DNA from: Balanoglossus misakiensis
Taxonomy: Eukaryota > Animalia > Hemichordata
Assembly (NCBI GenBank): GCA_040954595.2
Contig: CM082577.2
Coordinates: 7,713,846 to 7,777,845 of the forward strand
Direction: 5' to 3'
Length of the DNA: 64,000 nucleotides
Below are positions 13,563 through 64,000 of the stretch, piece by piece. Numbering within the stretch: the stretch's first letter is position 1; the number at the start of each line of letters is the position of its first letter. The notes beneath the pieces were generated by a model. That model was given only the letters and a program-made list of their open reading frames with translations, searched no databases and was not told the DNA's origin. The translations under genes and the position numbers were made by a program.

Positions 13563-14639
13563 CTATGTGTGCGTCGTGGCGACTGTGTTGACGTTGGCAT
13601 TGAACTTGGCCCGGGGTTCGTTGCCACCCGAGTTTAACTTGGTCTCCTGCTCCACGTCGACGTCCGCCAGTCGCTTGCACGTGATCACTTTGGCGAAACA
13701 CTTGCGGAAGTTGTCGCTCATGAAGGAGTAGATGAACGGGTTGATGCTGCTGTTGAAGTAGCTCAGACAGATGGTGAAGTAGTAGCCGATGAGAAAGCCT
13801 CGGCTCGGCATCCAGTCCTCCGACGTCGTCAGGGTGTACAACTGCACCCCGTAGAACGGCGTCCAGCACACGACGAACACGAAGATCACGGTGAGGACCA
13901 TTCGCGCCACCTTCTTGGTCGGCTTCTTGGTGTTGGACTCCCCCAGGGCTGCCACCCCCGTGTACAGACGCTTTATCATCAGCATGTAGCAGACGGTTAT
14001 GATGAACACCGGCAACACCACTCCAAACATGAACATGTATATGTAGAAGAGTTTCTGGAAGTTCTTGTACGGCCAGGTCAGCGTGCAGATCGTCGTGTTC
14101 GCCTCCGGATAGAAGATAGTCCTGGTGTACAACCACAGCGGCATCACCGTGACGCACGACAGAACCCAACACGAGATGTTGACGGCGGCGGCGATTCTCT
14201 TGGTGCGAATCTTGATGCTTCGGATGGGGTGCACTATGGCGAAGTAGCGGTCGACGGCCATGGCGGTCAGGCAGTATATCCCCGTGGTCTGGTTCAGACC
14301 GTCCACCGCCATGACCAGCTTGCACCAGGCGAACCCGAACGGCCAGTACTGCTCCGCGTGCTGGAAAGTGACGAACGGCATGGTGAACATGAAGAAGAGG
14401 TCCGCCGTGGCCAGACTGAGGATGTACATATTGGCCACCGTTTTCATTTTGCTGTTCTTCAAAATGACGTAAATAACCAACAGGTTGCCGACGATGCCCA
14501 GCAGGCAGTTGCAGCCGAAAACGACGGGTATGACTATGTGGGTGTAGTCGCCATTTGAGTCGTCTGGGCGGGAAGAAGAATTGCCTTCTGCCAAAGTTCC
14601 CGCTACAGTGGATAAGTTCTCCGTTGTGTTATCCGCCAT
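13563..14639 (-). CDS. Somatostatin/allatostatin-C-type class A GPCR, intronless CDS, 358 aa
   Basis: ATG at 14639 (MADNTTENL; the ORF track's 14660 start is TTG). Seven hydrophobic segments; GN..VI in TM1; KMKTVANMYILSLATADL; WPFG..CK; VDGLNQ..CLTAMAVDRY..VHP; CWTPFY; SYFNSSINPFIYSFMSDNFRK. TM3 Asp typical of SSTR/opioid-group receptors; N-terminal NxT/NxS glycosylation sites. Confidence 0.93.
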   Translation of the reverse strand: MADNTTENLSTVAGTLAEGNSSSRPDDSNGDYTHIVIPVVFGCNCLLGIVGNLLVIYVILKNSKMKTVANMYILSLATADLFFMFTMPFVTFQHAEQYWPFGFAWCKLVMAVDGLNQTTGIYCLTAMAVDRYFAIVHPIRSIKIRTKRIAAAVNISCWVLSCVTVMPLWLYTRTIFYPEANTTICTLTWPYKNFQKLFYIYMFMFGVVLPVFIITVCYMLMIKRLYTGVAALGESNTKKPTKKVARMVLTVIFVFVVCWTPFYGVQLYTLTTSEDWMPSRGFLIGYYFTICLSYFNSSINPFIYSFMSDNFRKCFAKVITCKRLADVDVEQETKLNSGGNEPRAKFNANVNTVATTHT

Positions 14640-17600
14640 TTTTTTATCCTGTCGTTTCAAAATACAAAATCGTTTTTGAAACTGTCAGTTCGCCTGTTAC
14701 ATCAGTTGCAAACAACAATCAAGACTATTGAAACGGCCGATAGATTCCATGTTGTTGAAAACGCTCTCGCTGTGTAGCTGTCTGGTCCAATTTATATCTG
14801 AAATATAAAGCAAGTAATTGTTTATTAAAATATGCACTGAAACGTATTTCGAACACAAAGGATAACGAGAAGCGTCTGTAGATCTCACATTCTTTCAATC
14901 TCAATCGCATATTCATCGCAACAGAGTCGATGCTCAGGCGAACAATTCAGTTCCTGAGTTAAATGATGTCTGGGAGCGTCAGCGAAATTGATGTTATTCA
15001 AGCAGATTTATCGCGTGGTTTTTTCTGAAGCACTTTAAATGAAAGACTTGAACACCTTCCTCGATTAATAGTATCGCTTCAATTAACTCATACATTATTT
15101 TCGGTTGATTAATTACAAAAAGAAACTGAGGTTTCGTTTGCGAACGTGTCCTATCCAAAACGCGGCAGATTGTAAGCGTTAGCGTGGAATAATGAAAATT
15201 CCCAGAATTCGCGAACATGACCGAGACGATGGATAGAGTGTAAACTCGGTACAGGTTAAGTCAATCCACCCAAAGGTATTTGCTTAACGCTTCGTCGACA
15301 AAAGTCTAGACAAACTCGATACGATCCACACACTTCGTTCTAGAAAGCCGCAGTCATATCTTGTTCTCTGTTCCATGCATCTATAGAGTGAGATACAGGT
15401 CTGACTCAGTTTGCGCGATACCCGATGTGAATCAAGAATGATGGCCACGGTTCTCATAGGGCTATCTTCAACAAGACGTGATAAATTCCACGTCACAGAA
15501 TCACTTGAATTGAAAATGGCCTTTTCTTCTGGCACTCTTCTTATCATCTTATTTAAGTAGACGAATTCTGAAGCACATTCTTGGAATGAAGTGGTAGTCA
15601 AGTGCTTGTTGCTAGGAGCAACTTGATACAAATAATAATTATGTCTCACACACAACATCTATGCTGGAACACCGATACCTTTGAAAGTAAAATTGGAACT
15701 GCGCGGTTAAGTCTTCGTGTTAGAAAAATCCAAATACCACGGTATATTATTACAGTAGCCGTAAAGAAGCACCATGTTGGACTGAGTAATTCTTGTCCTA
15801 TGGCAACACTTAATCAAAAATTAAAATGTAAATTTCTTGCCATATTCATTGCGTATCATAATCAATGTTTTATACAAACGGCGAGCAGTCTAAGGCAGTT
15901 AGTTCACATGTCAACAATATTCCATTATCCCAAAATAGTTTCAACGGTGTTACATGCACCATAATTTGCAGTTAAACCGATTATTTTTTCTCTCGCGAAG
16001 GTCTTTGTCTAGGATTACAAGGTCGCTGATGATACTATACAGGGTGATTGCAAAATAACGTTGCTGGGAATATAAGAATTGCATTGAACTGCGGCCGCGC
16101 TGTGTGGCACAATCTCAGTCATTGGCGGGTGCAATCATACGGCCACTGAGTCAAGTGCTTGCCGTATCGCAGACGGTATCAACGCAGTGTGCTGAATTTC
16201 TCCAATCATTCTTTAACTTTTTTTCAGATCAGAGAAGTGCTCTCCGAGGCAACTGGAGATACATGTGCACCGTTCATCCCGGCGGTAAAACTCGACTCAA
16301 GATGTCTTGTTCAATTTGCTTTCGGATCTATTACCTTGTAGAAAGCGAGTTTTCAGGATGGCTGAACTCCCCATCAAGGGTATGTTGTCGCCGACCGGTG
16401 CTGCCCACGCGGTGCTATTACCCGTAGTTCATGCGTACGTGATGTGTGCACAAACAAGGGTCTGCGCGCGAATCCGGGAATGATTGCGCGCCTTTAAGAT
16501 GGAGAGATGCGGTGCCTAATTTAGGTGCACACGCCACAAAACACACAAGGCCCCACCCCATAAAAGATATCTGATACTCCGGAGGAATATTTCGCAATTT
16601 TGCCCTTTAAAACCCATCGTGTCGTTCTTATAATGTAGGCGCAATTACACCTCGTCTCGTCTCATGATTGCGCAGTGCGAGAAGCTTCCTCCATTCTGTT
16701 GAAACCCCCGCGTATACGCATTTGTCGTCGGAGTTTGATTGCAGGTACAAGATTGTCCCATTCACTTGGACCGGAGAAGCTCCATTTTAGATAATCGCCC
16801 CAGTCATTGTAGCATGCCGGCCTCACCCGAAGCACACAATGAGGATGCGAACCGTCATACAGTCACGAGAGAGAGACGCACCATCAATACAGTTGGAACA
16901 ACACAACCATTCGATCAGCTAACCAGTGACAGTTTGGCATTTGGGAGACAAAAAACGCCAGACACAATTACGAGGGGGTGATAGCAAAGATACCAATTTA
17001 CGTCAAATTCAAAGAAATTCGTACGCCGACGCGTACAATACAGAATTTTTTCCTCGGTTGTGTAATGGCGACCTTCGAAAATTGTACAAGACCCAATAGG
17101 CTAAGTCCTACAGCGGGATGAGTTAAAATACATACGAACATAGTATTGTCAAGTATAAGACAAAATACGCTATAAAAAATACATGTAAGAAAAATTGTAT
17201 GTGCACAATATACTCTACAACGGACTGTAATGATATATTTTGTACGTCGACAACAATCTTCAAAGCTCGTCGACAACAATGTTTCACGATCAACTTAAAG
17301 ATTGCATAGCTGGATCATTAGAGAAACCAATCACATTGTTAAGTGACAAAAATCAAAATACCCCCCCCCCCTCCCACCAGGTGTCCATCCAACACGCAAT
17401 ATTCAAGTTACAATCCCTGAAAATATTATTTAAAAAAAACATACTGATTTGTTTGGGATATTGGTAAAATTACGTCAGCAGCTCCGTCGGGGTTCTTAAG
17501 AAGTTTGCGGATTATAAGGGTATGACATATGAATAAGAAGATTGGTTTTCGAGAATCACACGCGGCTAAGAATTGCAACTTTAATCAAGTAAATGTCCGG

Positions 17601-38132: not shown

Positions 38133-45419
<7,287 letters not shown>

Positions 45420-50826: not shown

Positions 50827-53800
50827 ATGGCGTACACTATACTTCTATTGGCCTGTCTGGCTGCCACGTTTGATTTCTCTGCCCCAGCTACTGTTCACGT
50901 CATGAAACGAGATCCAGAAGAACTTCAGGTGCGTGGTTTTCGGGTTCAGTTTTTCCCATCCTTACATCACATTTTTTATATAGTTTCACTTTGATTTGCA
51001 TGTTACTTAAAGTTTATCATCTTCCAATTATGCCTGATAACAGTTATGTCGTTGCATTGATGGATGTCCAGCAAAAAAGTCGGGAGAAATCTGATTTTAT
51101 GTTATGATGAAAGTGTTGTCCTTTATTGGGCTCAGTAGAATTCATTGTTATACCACTTTTGCCACGAGTAAAGCCGCTGGTCTTTCTTCTTTGATGCACT
51201 TGGCAAGATAGGTCAACGTTTAGCCATGAAAAAAGTTATTTAAATCAATTAATCTGTGGGAATACTCCCGAGCAACGGTGTAAGCGGTTTAATATTCCAT
51301 CAACCATGTTAACTTGTCTTTTCAAATAATCTGTGGCAGTTAATGTAACATTGGTTCAAAGCATAGAGGCGATCGCAAAATGCTCGAGTTTGTCCTGACT
51401 TCAAGGTGGGGGCAATATTCATATTGATATTTTTCTGATTTTATGTATGTTGTATGCCAATTGATTTTAGAAACAAAAACATTTTACTTATAGGTGTAAA
51501 ATGAAAAGGTGTGTTCAATAAACAATTATGGAACCTCAACTGAAAAAGTCACTATTCATATATAAAACTGAATGCTTGTATACAGATACCAATGGTTCCA
51601 CTGGCCGATGTAATAGCCGAACTTGATGCGAGACGAAATAACGTGGTCAAACGACAAGAAGAGGAGGTCACGATATTACCGGAGAGTACGTCAACTTGCA
51701 ATTATCGCCCGACCGTGTATAGCTAATATCGCAGTAAAGCATAATTTTCTTCGTAATTTCCTAGTTTTGAATTCATTTATAGGATGGTATAGTGAGTAGA
51801 CCTACCATAGAAATAATTAGCGTAAAGACGATTATACCATTCCCCTCAGTGACACCCATAGCGGTATAGGGATATCAAATAGTGTACACTCTCTTGTCAT
51901 AAGTCATAACGCGCCATGTAGTGACGAGGCAGTAACATAGAGTAAACATCAATCTCTTCCCAGCACCAACTTTAGCCTACCAGACATACCGAACGTGTAA
52001 CTACATCATATTAGCGGTGATCGACTTTTCGGCAGGCGGAGGAGGCGTGCCCGTTTTCGATGGCGGCAACATGTCGTATGTAGTCTACCTGGCTGGAAAT
52101 CCCCCTTCGCCACCCGTGTTTTCAGTTGCCACTCAGCTGGAGGGACTCAATCCGCTGTTCCCAGTTTTCATATCGGCATGGGCGGGACCATTCCCGTTGT
52201 GCAGCGACTTAGTTATCAACGTCACCTTGTCAAATGTCGATGGAACGTTAACGAGAGCAGCATCTTTCCACAGAAAGCTTGGTGAGTGATACTTGGACAG
52301 ACTTGGCAAAATGTAAATAATAAAAAAAAATGAGTGAGTGCCTGGGTGCGTGGATAGATAGATGGAAGAGTTGATGAACCATACATACAAAGTGCCTTTC
52401 CTTCTTATACTATACTATGCTATGCTATGCTATATGCTATGCCATACACTAAAAACCTTCTTGTCTTTCATGCATTTAGCGTGTAGTTGTCGTACGGGTG
52501 GTGCCAGTGGTGATCCTCACGTGAAGTCGGCTGACCACCAAGGGGTAAACGTTAACGGTCCCTGTAAATATGTCCTAGTCGAGGATTGTGAAAACCATCC
52601 CCCAGCATGGAAGATCACAATGACCAATGGTAACTTGTTTGGACGTACCCGCTCACGACGAGTTCAGTGTGCTAGCCTAACGATGCACAACCACACCGTC
52701 GATCTTTACCCAAATGGAAATGCTTCAGTGAGTTTCTTGCGTTTGCATTAATATTCAATTTTGATAAATATACAATTTTTTTTTTGTAATTTCCATCTAG
52801 AAATCATGCAGTACAAATGTGGGCAAAATCCTAGAGATTTAATGTGCTGTAGTAAAGTGACGCTAGGATAAATGTAACAAAACGAGTATTTGTACAAATC
52901 CGGAAAAAAAAAATCAAGCGTGCATGTGTAGCAAAGTAGAAGTATATTCTTAATTTTCTCGTGTTGAGACCCTATTCAGGGTTATCTTGAGTAGCCCTAA
53001 TATTTGTCATGTTTTCATTATTTCATGTGTTTACTTTCAAACATCTAACGTTGTATTTAAATGAGCTTACTGATTGGTGCACACAAACATATTATCAACC
53101 CCTGGCTGTGGCTGTATACTTAGATATGAACAAGTCAATCAATAAACGAGTGCTGCACCCTTTTATTCAGTCGCCCATTGCAGTCGAACACACAAATTGC
53201 GGTATACGCAAATGCGCAGTAGAATCCCAATAACGTAAAACATGCGTCGTTTGTCGAGTAAGGATGAGATTTAAGCATTGTATCGATTACAGTGCATTGT
53301 AAATCCTTAAAGGACACCTATCAGGGCTTTACTTTACGACATGAACCGGTTACCTTGTGTATAACGAGACCTAAATCATGAAGTATCATTAAGTTTTTTT
53401 TTTCTTACTCAGTGCGATGGTATGGATGTGCATAATGGGATGACTCCAGATTTCAAAATTGCCATACTTGCCGCCCCTGAAACGACCGGCATGTATGTAT
53501 CGTCCTACGAAGACAAAGTATACTTGGAAATGACCGCCAGTTATTCAATTGTAGTAGGCTTCTTGGAGCAATACATGAAGGGAGCTACATGCGGTCTCAT
53601 GGGTAACAACAACGGCATTAAGGACGACGACTTTAACTTCAACGGGAACACCAATACGGACCCCAGCGAATTCGTGAATTATTGGACGGAGAGGTAGGCG
53701 TTCTTGTTGTGCCACACGTGATCACATCACGTGGGGTAATATTACACCGTTTTCTCTGTGTTTGTTTGTTTGTTTGTTTGTGTCTGTCTGTCTGTCTGTC

Positions 53801-55044: not shown

Positions 55045-58000
55045 CTAACTCTCAGCAGACTGGCAGCTGTAGCAAACAAAGTAAATATTAACGATATTGT
55101 TAGTACGAGATCATGCTTCTGTACGGCTTGCACGTAAATATCCGAACTGTGCGCTCTGTTCAAGATGGAAAAAATAAAATTCCCAGACTGTTTAATCAAT
55201 AATGCCCGCTTGGACGAAGACGGGTAAACGCGAGATTTGCTTCCTTTGTTTGGTTTAACCTCACATTTCCCCCGATGCATGCTAGTTCAGGAGCCCGTTT
55301 TACCACAGCTAGCCGTGCTAAAACATCGTTTTACCACAGCTAGCCGTGCTAAAACAGTATTTTAAGCATCGCTAGATTGAGCTCTCGCCCGGCTAATCAA
55401 AATGGCGGGCGCTAGCATGATATACTAGTAAATGTAATATGATTTTAATGACAGTATTATACATGGCAGGACAGGTAACTACACGATGTACGGTTCATGT
55501 ATATCTGTTTTAAAAGCACCATATCATGTATGGAATGGTTATATTCGGATGCCTTAACAGTAATTGAAGAAAAGTAGACACGACTTTTCAACGTACAATT
55601 GGAAACCATAACGGGATGTATCGAGTGCGGGTAAAACATACCTGCCAGGCACGATCCAGTGGTTCATAAATACGACAGGGTCGACATTGGCGTTTCCATT
55701 AAAGAAGAAGTCATCGCTCTTGTCGCCGTTGTAGTTACCAAACATACCACACGATTCCAGCCCCATCTCTTCGACCTTAACGCCGTACTCAATTCTGTAG
55801 TCGCCGTAGACACCAAAGAACATCGTATCTTCATAGTTGATTGCCACTTTCCCGCTGGGGTGGTCGGGGGACGGGAAAACCGCAAACGTGTTATCCGCAG
55901 CCATACTGTAGTCGCTATTCTGAGCGGACACCACGTCATCGACAGTTATCTAATTGCGCGAAAAAAAGTAAATATATTCAAGCACATCCAAGTTGATAGC
56001 GACGACTGGGGATGCTACTGAAAAATCTGGAAAAGGTTTTTTTTTATTGTTTTTATAGGGTGTTGTTAATGCAAATGCATTTCAGTTCAAGTCACTACAA
56101 AACGCTGCAATGCCTACTGTCGATTTTATGAACTTGTGCACCCATGAATCAAATAATACAAATTTAATTTACGACCGTTAATTATTGCTTACGGGCTTGG
56201 GGCTGTTTTCCAAAGTTGCTGTAACTGTACATTTAACACACACAATGTGCACTTTTGTTATCAAGTTAAATATTAGGTGCTTCAACATTTAATTCTGGAC
56301 CGGAGAACTATGCATGAACGATCGTTTTGGAAATAATGGCTATCAAAACTGAAAGTCCCAGGCTTTGTGTATAAATGAGGCCAACGCAACAGCCGCGAGA
56401 TACTCACTTCAGTGACTCCATTTGGAAATATTTCAACACTGTTGTTGTACATGTTCAATTTGCCGCACTCAACTCTCCGACTGCCGCTCCGTCCAAGCAA
56501 GTCACCGTTCGTCATCACAAGGGTCCATTCCGGGGGAGTGTTGAAACAGTCTTGAGCAAGGATGAATTGACACTTTTTGTTGACGTTGATTGTGGAGCCG
56601 TCCAAAGTTTGTACGTGGGGATCACCATACCCTTGACCGGTCGGGCATCTACAAGCTGAAGGCGAGAAGGAGACAAAAGGGAACTCTAAGACGCAAATTG
56701 GCAGTTTATAATATTTCAACTATCGGAATGCGAGGAACTGAAGATAAATGACCTTCAATGCGATTTGTCTTTTTTTTTCACAGCCAACTGAAATTTTACA
56801 TTGTCTGCAAGCTGTAGAAAGAAACACGTGAGTTATTTTGTTACACTGGGCAATATTGTTTTCTTTGGCAATTTTCACTCACTCACTCACCCCCACACCC
56901 ACCCACCCACTCACTCACTCACTCACTCACTCATCAACAACAACAACAACTCGCTTGACATTTGTTAGCAAGTCACTCATTCAATTTCAAGTAGGGCCTA
57001 GCTAAATAATTTCTTGTGACTAATGTGTAATCATAGACCCTGAAGAAATGTGGTTTAATTATCACTCACCAATCTTTCTGGCGAAAGCTGCATGTCTCAT
57101 CACCGTTCCATCGGCATTTGACAAGGTGACGTTGATAACTAAGTTACTGCACAACGGGAATCGTTCTGACCATGCCGATACGAAAACTGGGTAGAGCGGA
57201 TTGACTCCCTCCAGCTGAGTGACAACTGAAAACACGGGTGGCGAAGGGGGATTTCCAGCCAGGTAGACAACATACGACATATTGCCGCCATCGAAAACGG
57301 GCACGCCTCCTCCGCCTGCCGAATAGTCGATCACCACTATTAAGATGTGATTACACGTTCGGTATGTCCCGTAGGCTAAAGTTGGTGCTGGGAAGAAATT
57401 GATATATTCATAAAAAGAGTGCCCTGTCACGGGTCATAGGTTACTATGACAAATTTTATTCACGCACTGAATCTCCAAAACCCTGGACCCATGAATCTGT
57501 TCAAGTCGATTTCGCAAAATGGAATACAAGTCACCTGAAAATTTGAAGAAAAAATCCACGTGACCCTGCGAGATCTCGTTATACGTTGTAACACACGAAC
57601 TCTGCGCCTATTCTAGTTTCGTTCAAAGCTTGACAGCAACCCATTGCAAGTCTCGTGAGATCTCGCTATGAGTGAAATCTGTTCCACCGATATGGCCTAA
57701 AATGAATAAGTAGTCGACATATACCATATACCCATAAAACTCTATCTCTGGCTTGATGTTAAATACCACAGTGCGATTACATGGCATGATCATGAACTTA
57801 CTCTCCGGAAACCCTTCCAATGGAGCCTGTCGCTTGTCCATGTTTGTGTGTGGATTCATTTGGGCTATTATATCAGCCAGTGGAACAAACGGTATCTGTA
57901 AGCAAGAACGATCAAAAGAAAATCAACGTAGAATGGGCAAAATTAAGCTTTGAGCACATCGGGCATGTATGTGTCTATAAAAAAAATAACAGCACTGAAG

Positions 58001-58810: not shown

Positions 58811-59266
58811 TAGTCTCGGTTACCCAGACGCCTTTGCTCTTCCGATGCTCTCCAGAAAAGGGTCTGGGGAAATGCTATTGAAAGCTTTGTAAAACAAAAT
58901 GGCCGATGTCAGGATTTTGATCATCGCCTGATTGGCTGAGCTGTCTGTATGACCCGGGTCACTGCAATAGTTTTGACAATCGTCTACCAAAGATATTTCA
59001 TATAATTTCTCCAACAATGCTAACAGAGGACGCCTTTTGCCTTTCGCATCAACCAAGAAGTACCGGTCTCTTGATATGAAGATACGACAAATAATCACAC
59101 ATTGTCGAGAGTCAGTGACCCGGGTCATACTGACAGCTCAGCCAATCAGGCGATGATCAAAATCCTGACATCGGCCATTTTGTTTTACAAAGCTTTCAAT
59201 AGCATTTCCCCAGACCCTTTTCTGGAGAGCATCGGAAGAGCAAAGGCGTCTGGGTAACCGAGACTA
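58811..59266. mobile_element. 456-bp foldback MITE with 154-bp TIRs and 9-bp TSD (Mutator/MULE-like)
   Basis: aagttgtac|TAGTCTCGGTTACCCAGACG...CGTCTGGGTAACCGAGACTA|aagttgtac. TIRs 58811-58964 and 59113-59266 differ at one position that I could see. Confidence 0.93.
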
Positions 59267-59810: not shown

Positions 59811-61664
59811 CTAGGCAAGGTTGGAGGTCAGGTGGTAGGAAGAATACACCAAAAGAGGGCGCATCGCGCGCGTAGGGCAGCCTGAGTGTATCGGCAAGAG
59901 AAAGGTTAGCATCTCACACACAGCAGAGGTGGCATGACATCAGCGAAGGTAAAGCTCGAGCCAACCATGTCTGGTTTAAATCAGATTGGATTTGTGTAGA
60001 ACAAGAACTTACTGCAACAGTAGACACAATCTACTGTACATAAAATAGGCAAACCCGTCGTAAGACTTTCCTCAACTGTCCTTTATAGACATATGTTCTT
60101 TATCTTTAGGCAGGTCAATTAATTATGCAAATGCAAATTGCACAACGATTGCAACACACTGGCCGCAAAAAGTTTCCATTACATGCCTGAGATGGCAACA
60201 TGTTTGACTGTATATGTATGATGTACTATCCAGCTTGGAGAAAATACGAAAAATGCTAAAAATAATAACAGACACGTGCATCATGTGGGTTTTAGATAGC
60301 GCAGAGAACACGGACTACTATGTAATTCATCCCCGTGGCCGGACTCTCATGTGGGCAAAGTTAAACTATGACAGACCCCCCCCCCACCCCGCACCCACAG
60401 ATGTAAGGACAATTTGGGTCAAACTGGCCGATCAGGCCACGTCTACAGACAGACGTGCTGTATGTTTGCATCGGCGATGCAAATATGAATCAGGTCGGCA
60501 CGACCATGGCGGGAAATTGGCATATGTTGCGATTACAACCGCTTATGTCGCGATAAACCCGATGAATGTTTTACACAAAGATATTACTGCAATCACCACA
60601 TTTTGACATGTTGCTGATAGTTAAGTTCATCTGTCGTCTTCATCGACCGGGCAGACATGCCGTCGCGAGGAAAAGCAATACCATAGTCGGTTCTAGAAGA
60701 ATCGGTGGATTTTTGCTATGTCACTTGATCGTATTTCTTTTATCTGTAGTCTGACGCGCAGCATAATTTCTTTAAACATTTACAGAAAACAAAGACTCGG
60801 TTTTATTCTTTTCTATTCTATTATATTCTTTTAAAATATCTCTTCCAGTTTCATTCACAGTGCCAACTGCGTTATTCTCCGCGATTTTCATTATTTTCGC
60901 GGCAGTATGGCACGTACACTACCATCGTGGGATACAATTATGCCACCTATCGAGGGTCCAATAAATTACACACAGGAACCAGTATTAACTAACTTTATCA
61001 AGGACTCTTGTCAGGTTTTACAGTATTACAGCTAGCTCTCGTGAGTATCGGCTGATAATATGTACAATGCAAAAGATTTCAAGCTGACGTGGTTCCCACA
61101 GTCGCGGTTTAAAACTACGCACCGTACCACGGCAACATCACTTTTTCATTTGTCTCTCACCGCAGCATTGCCACTACACAACCGAGACTAAGGTAGGATG
61201 CTTGGAATTGTATTAGTGCTTCGATAAAATTGTATTTTTGATCTAGTGAAATTACACGAACGACGGGAGTCTGGCGCCTGGTGTTTAGCGACACTATTCA
61301 GTCAATAAGAGGAGATATGGCCCAAAAGGTCTCTACCCTCCTGAAATTTCTTTGTGTGTTTCTGAGCAAAATTCCTATATTGTCACTGGAACTCTAATAT
61401 GGTACAAAAACAGCAGCCGGCATTTTCGCTAGTGAACCAGCTGATACATGAATGAGTAAAACGTTCACGCTAATATTTATTGTCTGGTTAGAGATGAATG
61501 GCAAGAAAATACAACATTTTTCATTATGAAATGGAGAGGAAGAAAAGCTGGCTGAAAATTTTCTTCCAGCGACTTGATCGTTTCCAAGTTTTTATTTCTC
61601 ATCATGACGGTTGCAACACAACAATTACGACTGTAGATTTCTGTCCTGCCGCCAGATTTACACC

Positions 61665-63935
61665 ATGCGTCTGTTCGTCCTCTCCGTTCTGGTAGCAGTG
61701 GCTACAGCCCAGTACACTGGGCCCCTCCCGTGGGGACTGGATCGTCTCGACCAAACGAAGTTGCCTCTTGATGGCTCATACATGCCATACGGTGAGTCAT
61801 ACCTCCAATTTATCATTGAATTTCGTCTGCCATCTTGTATCTCGTGTTACAGTACCGTAACCAGTCGACACTATTTACTCGCACTTTTGTTTCGTGTGAA
61901 ATTGTCTGTTGACGTTTACCTCGTGTACTTTAAGGATAAGACATGCCTAAAAGGTGGTTTCAGGAATTGTACTTTTATCAAAGTCCTTACCCAGGCTTTA
62001 ACATCATATATTCCAGATACAGAACACAGTGTATATTTCTACAGTAGTCATGTGACACGCTTTTTTGTAGACCTTGGAAAATAAAACATTTGGTCATTGG
62101 TTTATTGGTCAAATAAAATCGTATGGTCACCGCGCTCTATTTTGAGGTAAATTTCGTTAAATGGTTTGCCCATAGACAAACCACTGGCGATGAAAAAATG
62201 CTGACTCGGCAGTTTTCGTCAAATACCGACCAAATTTACGGCCTTGCATTTCAAAAACAATCGTGGTGTCCCTTGCATTTTGTTACAGATTTTTTATGCT
62301 TGCAAAGAAAAACCAAAACTCTACAAATAAAAGAAATGGCAATGCATTGAATTTCACTGATCGTACGTCCTTAACATTATGTTTCTACATTTATTACTCT
62401 CTGGCATTGCGTATCGCCCTCTGTGGTTAGATAACAGGCAAGTAAAAGTGGCGAGTGGGCGTGTGCTCCTAACCCAACTCAGTCGCTTTTTTCGGCTTTT
62501 CGAAGTTCAGCGGTAGACTTATCTCCATGTTGACAAATAGTCTTTCACACCTTCCTAAATCACCTGCCCACAATGCTTTGAACACTGTTTATATAGTTGG
62601 GTTTGTCTGTGGACTTAATTATGTATGCATGGACCGCTAATTACACTTTACTGTCAGCAGAGTGGTACACTAGAACCTACCTGTTTTTCCATATGCAAAT
62701 ACCTTTGCCTGGCTCGAGTGCGAAGTGGCTCCCTGATCACAGGCATTAAAAAAGGTGGCAAATTCCGGCATTCGCGCACATTTTTCGGAATCGACACAAT
62801 AGGCAATGCATAGACAGGTACCCTAGGTGAGCTTTGATGGGGGGGGGGGGATGAAAACTTTTCAAAGCATGTCATAGACACTTTAAACACATTGCACGTT
62901 TCATATTAATTCAAGGTACGGGTGACGGAGACCAATCTATCGTATATGTCATGGCAACTGGTATGGAGAGAACCCACGAGAACTTTGGGCCAAGTTTCAC
63001 AAGAACCAGTCTAATCTATGATTTCCAGGGAGGCACTGTAAGTATACTATGTAACTGTTTTGTGCTGTGTGCTGGTACCCTAGTCAGAAAGACTTCCTTT
63101 GCGACTGCGATGTACATGTACCTACACTGTGCAAATTTGTGCGCGTGACGTAATGTCACATTCTAAACAAAATTTAGAGCATTTTATGGGCAGTCACGGA
63201 GCTCGTAGAAGGGGAACATTTATATCCTGTAAATAAAAAGTGTGGCGTGAAAACGATGTTCAGCGGTCCATGTGCATTGTATGGTTGCAATGGGGCAACC
63301 TCCGTGAATCAAGCATGGTGAAATACGAAAAAAAGTACACTTATAGAAATTATAGGACATGGCCTATATATTCATTTCGATTTGTATTTTACATTATTAT
63401 AATAAAATATAAATATACAAAATCAATTACCTTGACTTACCTTATCTGGCATACCTTATCATGATGAAGGGGAAAGGGTAATATTTTTGACATTTTATTA
63501 TTTTTGAATAAGCACGGTGGCCCTATATTTTTTCTTATTTGTGGATTTGGTATACAGAAATGTTTTTTTTAATATCACAACTTTTCTTTTTTCCTGAACG
63601 TACATCCCTCAAAATGATAAAGTCTGTTTCTGTGGCATAGTTGCAGGGAGATGGGCAGACAGACAGACAGACAGACAGACAGACAGGCAGACAGACACAC
63701 AGACAGATAGACTTACACCTGATCACTATTAAAAGGGTTCGTATTGTGAAAATGTGTGTCCCGACCTTCTCTATTCGTCGTTGACAGGGCGAAGACACCA
63801 ACGGTGCCGGCACTGCTTTCTCTGGTATTATCGCTGGACAGTACACAGGCGTGGCCGCAAAGACAAGACTCGGTATAGTCAGGATTAACGACGTACCAGA
63901 CACAGCTACCCTCCTTGCAGATAACGTGATCGCCG
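61665..63935 (+). CDS. Aqualysin/proteinase-K-type (S8A) subtilase homolog lacking the prodomain and catalytic Asp/His (5' three exons; continues beyond the window)
   Basis: Exons 61665-61791, 62916-63037, 63788-63935 (GT-AG, phases 1, 0, 1) give MRLFVLSVLVAVATA-QYTGPLPWGLDRLDQTKLPLDGSYMPYGTGDGDQSIVYVMATGMERTHENFGPSFTRTSLIYDFQGGTGEDTNGAGTAFSGIIAGQYTGVAAKTRLGIVRINDVPDTATLLADNVIA. This is colinear with the mature aqualysin-type motifs PWGLDRIDQ..LPL, VYVIDTG...H.EF, DCNGHGTHVAG.I..YGVAK and VIAG. Confidence 0.88.
63657..63712. repeat. (GACA)n microsatellite in subtilase intron 2
   Basis: Tetranucleotide run, possibly part of a reversed HINE-like element. Confidence 0.9.
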
Positions 63936-64000
63936 GTAAGACTCCATGAAACTATTCGAAACGTGCAGGTGGACATCGTGTTAATAATGAATTGGTATTA

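Follow-up and report, generated by a model that had tools for sequence, protein, structure and literature searches.

Secreted subtilases normally need a prodomain to fold, and both canonical inhibitors and prodomains dock on the two substrate-binding strands; folding without a classical prodomain is found in the intracellular subtilisins and in the engineered calcium-free BPN′, and is unusual, not unprecedented. In vertebrates, PCSK9 has an intact triad and a C-terminal Cys/His-rich domain; it makes a single cut in itself, and its prodomain remains in place as a cap. PCSK9 is a proteinase-K-type animal protein that acts by binding, as in the LDL receptor complexes 3bps and 3m0c. The spore proteins CspC and CspA of Clostridioides difficile, the best known among dead subtilases, combine a subtilase fold with a degenerate triad and a selected non-enzymatic job, and keep an uncleaved prodomain, which CspC needs in cis; catalytic mutants of subtilases fail to autoprocess (sections of PMC7200643 on these proteins). 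In Plasmodium, PIMMS2 is a subtilisin-like pseudoenzyme of the eukaryotic secreted pathway, lacking the HGT and GTS motifs; it is SUB1-like, with its own transmembrane segment and a C-terminal extension, and some orthologues keep triad residues (excerpts of PMC5520436).

The window, that is, the whole 64,000-nucleotide stretch of Balanoglossus misakiensis DNA analysed here, contains the beginning of a gene that resembles these systems and differs from each of them. With aqualysin I, Vibrio VPR and proteinase K (MEROPS S8A, proteinase K subfamily; PDB 4dzt, 1s2n and 2prk) the gene and its acorn-worm relatives share the predicted fold, the N-terminal calcium-site motif, the signal peptide and, in the relatives, the Cys pair of the second disulfide; they differ in having no I9 prodomain, no catalytic Asp or His (window gene), no Asn or Ser (relatives), no first disulfide and remodelled substrate strands, and in their new Cys pair and C-terminal tail. 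Unlike CspC and CspA, the acorn-worm family has deleted the prodomain, and the window gene encodes a predicted secreted animal protein. None of the above traits of PCSK9 (triad, bound prodomain and Cys/His-rich domain) occurs in the family, despite a sequence match at E 7e-14.

Judged by its sequence, the window gene is a member of a clade of dead, prodomain-less acorn-worm subtilases. The reading that we favour, with a confidence somewhat above the midpoint, is that of a spliced and intact family member, likely secreted, which would keep the fold but be unable to cut, and which would most likely serve as a binding or structural part of an extracellular secretion, for instance mucus. Dead subtilases are already known; what sets this family apart, undescribed in the literature searched, is the prodomain deletion, the animal proteinase-K-type origin, the new Cys pair and the long conservation. 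That search, with subscription papers and bioRxiv supplements outside it, returned no earlier description of an acorn-worm dead subtilase family, the matches in PMC10508912 being confined to its reference list; six accessions were found in no paper, and the words subtilisin, PCSK9 and protease do not occur in the text of the hemichordate genome paper, nor any of five such terms in two supplements.

Structure of the window gene

The gene lies on the forward strand. A 5′ non-coding exon at 61152–61192, its extent being that covered by a transcript contig (39 letters upstream of the joint, which is listed at 61190/61654 with its GT..AG at cut +2; the true 5′ end may differ), precedes the first coding exon at 61656–61791, which comprises a 9-nt leader, the ATG at 61665, a predicted signal peptide, the mature N-terminus and a phase 1 donor. 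The second coding exon (62916–63037) carries a degenerate Asp motif, and the third (63788–63935) a degenerate His motif and a remodelled loop in place of the Cys-x-Gly-Ser-Gly strand; the 5′ part of the third coding intron occupies 63936–64000, and the gene extends past the window, the transcript contig going 408 nt further. Re-reading of the coordinates bore out the structure proposed in the sequence-only reading, with coding parts of 127 nt (61665–61791), 122 nt (62916–63037) and 148 nt (63788–63935), GT donors and AG acceptors, phases 1/0/1, and 132 codons free of stops.

At the position of the catalytic Asp, in VYVMATG, stands Ala56 (GCA, 62954–62956), identical in the public runs X1, X2 and X3, and at that of the catalytic His, in DTNGAGTA, stands Ala90 (GCC, 63806–63808), with a silent GCT allele in run X2; both replacements had been read from the window, and their presence in all three runs rules out an assembly error at the two codons. 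The 132 residues contain no Cys, so that neither partner of the first aqualysin-type disulfide is present, again as claimed. The predicted signal peptide of 15 aa (61665–61709) has hydrophobic residues 2–12 (Kyte-Doolittle up to 3.2) and ends in Ala-Thr-Ala, pointing to cleavage after Ala15, and it abuts the mature domain within one exon. The motif WGLDRLDQ..LPLD (61731–61778) holds the side chains of a putative N-terminal calcium site: Asp26, Asp29, Gln30, Asp36 and Ser38 match the site of VPR and aqualysin, as its residues are given in a part of PMC9085296, and the protein may bind calcium there. The Asn and Ser sites, which lie beyond the window, are presumed lost, as they are in relatives 65–74% identical.

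From residue 15 on, exon 1 resembles the start of the mature domain in aqualysin-type proteases (E 9e-5). Taken singly, exons 2 and 3 give only weak alignments (E 0.2–2.8), placed on the Asp and His motifs of aqualysin, keratinase and proteinase K. A mature-domain profile run against the six frames of the window returned exactly the three exons and no second subtilase; a second profile, made from the prodomains of 131 active relatives, gave no match in the same six frames at domain E ≤ 1. The three window exons alone gave no S8 match in a Pfam search, and exon 3 alone found no homologue among 39 candidates.

Transcript and allele evidence

The three runs derive from a single sample within one study, perhaps the sample that gave the window, and do not form an independent population. 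None of them is recorded as RNA, but X3, listed as 'DNA?', is very likely an RNA run, since it lacks coverage of intron 2 and yields a spliced contig. This contig of 858 nt, whose depth of 218.5 gives no ranking of expression, skips three GT..AG introns exactly (61192/61656, 61791/62916 and 63037/63788), confirming the proposed joins and adding the 5′ non-coding exon; it carries both Ala codons unchanged and contains no prodomain exon. A hidden prodomain exon is ruled out by this contig together with the blank profile scan of the window, in agreement with the earlier claim that nothing stands between signal peptide and mature domain. A retrocopy as the origin of the spliced contig is judged unlikely, given that the three joints have depth 0 in X1 and X2, the two deeper runs, and that X3 leaves intron 2 uncovered. 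Past exon 3, the first 30 letters of the contig continue in frame, and by hand reading their ten residues match the next Ptychodera helix.

Between the runs and the window, at least six coding differences are listed in 397 nt, five of them silent (one in the Ala90 codon) and one the conservative Phe79Tyr; for the X1 contig all six exon 1 differences are listed, and for X2 part of exon 1 may hold further ones. With an expected silent share of 25–31%, five silent among six coding differences has a binomial P of 0.005–0.012, on a small count. The two indels among the run differences are both intronic. At exons 2 and 3 the three runs showed no further copy with a likeness of at least 80%.

An acorn-worm family without triad and prodomain

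The search for relatives with the same losses, proposed in the sequence-only reading, led to nine database proteins from acorn worms, six of Ptychodera flava, two of Saccoglossus kowalevskii and one, a fragment, of Glandiceps talaboti (P0004–P0009, P0124, P0125 and P0148). The exon 1 search yielded three of these among 55 candidates, all from Ptychodera flava, and an alignment search three more; the two Saccoglossus proteins and the Glandiceps fragment were added by a profile search of 1.84 billion representatives. Relatives of P0004 were absent from the metagenome contigs searched (93 pattern matches). The relatives are proteins of 336–347 aa with a single S8 domain, and Pfam PF00082 scores above its cut-off in eight of the nine (P0005 lies below). 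P0009 and P0148 are without the N-terminal part and P0005 ends at 199 aa; with two of the six Ptychodera models (P0005 and P0009) truncated, some copies may be decaying or mis-modelled. The accessions of five Ptychodera proteins run nearly consecutively on a single record of 41.5 Mb, suggestive of a tandem arrangement.

Wherever a relative covers the site, the catalytic residue is gone: the Asp in 7/7 (Ala, Gly or Ser), the His in 7/7 (Ala, Gly, Arg or Met), the oxyanion Asn in 9/9 (Asp or Glu) and the Ser in 8/8 (Ala, Ile, Gln or Gly), against 253 of the 290 domains of the whole set in which all four catalytic residues are intact. The prodomain profile matches none of the nine, and in all seven with a modelled N-terminus a signal-like peptide is fused to the mature domain and the prodomain is absent. 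The family has retained the positions of the fold core and lost those of the catalytic sites and the groove. All eight aligned members have the same four Cys, among them Cys 286 and 333 of P0004, which are absent from active relatives and probably form a bond; the relatives also retain the second ancestral Cys pair. Tyr143 and Met182 are among further family-specific invariant positions. The nine entries, named in databases 'aqualysin-like', 'exoprotease-like' or 'serine proteinase-like', are probable non-enzymes.

The window protein is 65–74% identical to four Ptychodera members (113–115 columns), 45% and 35% to the Saccoglossus members, and 40–47% to four prodomain-bearing relatives, values that point to a ptychoderid acorn worm as its most likely source, and its gene is nested in the Ptychodera group with a FastTree support of 0.977. 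The nine relatives form one clade with support of 100/99 (34 rows), and of 99/97 in a 29-row tree from which four long rows and the 28 columns surrounding the catalytic sites had been taken out; the rows are a hand-picked subset of the 290 domains, and the bootstraps had not fully settled. The losses shared across three acorn-worm families imply an age of the family of about 370 million years or more, and the family may be regarded as a lineage-specific secreted protein for acorn-worm biology.

Degenerate catalytic sites are also seen in four bacterial proteins, known as database entries only: P0126, P0127 and P0128 (two of them labelled Planctomycetota MAG) have two or three tandem domains, nearly all degenerate, and P0231 has a single one; in P0127, P0128 and P0231 the signal peptide sits directly on the mature proteinase-K-type domain, as in acorn worms. 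They stand apart from the acorn-worm clade in the best trees, with a single origin not rejected by the AU test (p 0.139), and probably represent a convergent dead, prodomain-less family.

Predicted fold and substrate groove

The structure prediction without a prodomain suggested in the sequence-only reading was made for the Ptychodera member P0004, whose predicted fold is still that of proteinase K. With a 118-sequence alignment the model reaches pLDDT 90.6 and pTM 0.91, the alignment consisting mostly of active proteases, so that this confidence is silent on folding without a prodomain. Its best structural matches are VPR, aqualysin and proteinase K (Foldseek E ~1e-22; Z 37.6–38.9, rmsd 1.8–2.2 Å), with Z 38.5 and 2.1 Å over 272 residues for aqualysin; the Atlas model agrees (pTM 0.85), and a single-sequence prediction gives pLDDT 36.8.

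In the groove, the family has other residues in place of the Gly-Gly of SLGG, where Gly is present in 215 and 184 of the 253 active domains. In the window gene itself, a different sequence takes the place of the Cys-x-Gly-Ser-Gly loop; among the copies, the loop next to the old cleft is variable. Since both substrate-binding strands are remodelled, the job of a decoy for protease inhibitors, which had been proposed for the protein, has lost ground.

Order of the losses

P0154 of Glandiceps talaboti (XP_077998247.1) bears on the order of these losses. It is dead at all four catalytic sites (Ser, Gly, Asp and Val), its Asn-to-Asp change being shared with the clade; it retains the Cys pair of the first disulfide, and it still has a prodomain, detected at E 1.8e-11 with a profile built without P0154 and below detection by Pfam at E 0.01. 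Each of the four mixture-model trees (94; 90; 98/89; 89/85) joins its long branch to the clade as sister, but FastTree does not place it there. P0154 is likely the sister of the clade and a candidate intermediate and, if this placement is right, a dead protein with a prodomain in this position suggests that the loss of catalysis preceded that of the prodomain. In Ptychodera flava, P0137 (XP_070542696.1) has the triad and prodomain intact and the oxyanion Asn changed to Gly, so that an apparently active subtilase may be impaired.

Under the proposed mechanism, an active aqualysin-like ancestor would first have lost its catalytic residues. Because catalytic mutants cannot autoprocess, the dead subtilase would have been unable to remove its own prodomain and would have stayed capped, like CspC of C. 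difficile. Deletion of the prodomain would then have opened the old cleft, and the protein would have come to fold without it, probably aided by the calcium site and by a new disulfide pinning the C-terminal tail. Active, dead-with-prodomain and dead-without-prodomain proteins may together offer a natural folding test of whether the prodomain is the price of an active, self-destructive protease.

Possible functions

In the favoured reading, the remodelled and uncapped cleft, or another surface, would bind a partner unlike a normal protease substrate; the mucus or secretion setting is the least supported step of the proposal. Data touching on this setting come from a marker table of Schizocardium (PMC13554239), in which about 55 of the 126 Pcsk9 rows are listed and the column meanings are as we take them. 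Among the rows listed, Pcsk9-57 (SCA35444) is strongly raised in cluster 12, the secretory cluster positive for muc2, and lowered in its 10 other rows, this gene being tied to the acorn-worm family by name only, through a label resembling the older name of Saccoglossus P0125. In the same table, 8 of the 14 endoderm cluster 0 rows listed are positive markers, in keeping with the gut expression of an amphioxus subtilisin-like protease described in part of PMC6015868. A broader account, which we put forward tentatively and with less confidence than the favoured reading, would have a digestive subtilase turned into a non-enzyme in two steps, active site first and chaperone second, and kept for 370 million years as a ligand-binding or scaffold protein of acorn-worm mucus; the family would then be a natural proteinase K fold without a prodomain, P0154 a surviving intermediate and the planctomycete bacteria a parallel.

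The best placed of the alternatives, though unlikely, is that the dead protein acts on its own protease system, binding active aqualysin-like paralogues, released prodomains or inhibitors, or shielding substrates, as CspA and CspC do with CspB. Acorn worms have many such genes, the numbers of the Pcsk9- or aqualysin-named genes of Schizocardium reaching at least 61 in the part of the marker table covered (PMC13554239), in addition to the endoderm markers just mentioned; pseudoenzymes often regulate active relatives, as noted in PMC7200643, and the cleft of the family is uncapped. Against this explanation stand the same changes that weaken the decoy role, in the Gly-Gly of SLGG in the family and in the Cys-x-Gly-Ser-Gly strand in the window gene.

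The five neighbouring Ptychodera copies and the variable loop beside the old cleft would also suit a recognition or defence factor, a binder of small molecules, glycans or microbial surfaces whose tandem copies diversify its targets, for which the bile-salt-sensing CspC offers a precedent. This explanation appears less probable than an action on the own protease system, since the alleles of the window gene look constrained and not diversifying, and the three runs hold no second copy at least 80% alike on exons 2 and 3.

Re-use of the fold as an enzyme with another chemistry, for instance through the acidic residue at the oxyanion Asn site, is improbable. It could draw on the Asp or Glu at this site in all nine members and in P0154, and on invariant positions such as Tyr143 and Met182, but the residues at the triad positions are small or unrelated and differ by lineage (Ala, Ile, Gln or Gly at the Ser site), which looks like relaxed constraint, and a sedolisin-type chemistry would still require the Ser. 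That the window copy is decaying, either as a transcribed pseudogene or as a duplicate on its way to loss, as the two truncated Ptychodera models and the reading of the gene only to exon 3 might suggest, is the least probable explanation in view of the open frame, the exact splicing, the in-frame run-on into the next exon, the silent-biased alleles and the same losses in lineages some 370 million years apart. Taken with the clade, the splicing and the 5:1 ratio of silent to non-silent allele differences favour the original view of a maintained non-enzymatic secreted protein over random decay.

Other features of the window

The first coding intron of the gene holds high-copy repeats at 62100–62900, with summed depth from thousands to above 100,000. 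The nearest upstream neighbour consists of two inverted copies, facing head to tail, of a gene with exons for von Willebrand D (VWD) domains (Pfam VWD E 2e-6 to 7e-5), at 51575–53700 on the plus strand and 55550–57920 on the minus strand, with arms at 51921–52294 and 57057–57430 that are 87% complementary; VWD domains are typical of mucin-like secreted proteins. The element at 58811–59266 resembles a non-autonomous transposon and is bounded by terminal inverted repeats of 154 nt that are 99% complementary; it is present at very high copy in X1 and X2 and missing from one allele (joint 58799/59267). Three further genes were recognized on the minus strand: an intronless rhodopsin-family GPCR ORF of 373 aa at 13563–14684 (7tm_1 E 1.4e-63), which by eye we take to be somatostatin/allatostatin-C-receptor-like, the exons of a CRAL-TRIO (SEC14-like) gene at 38885–42741 (E 5.3e-27), and, at 2592–2897, the first exon of a secreted PqaA/PhoPQ-related protein (PF10142, E 1.3e-5).
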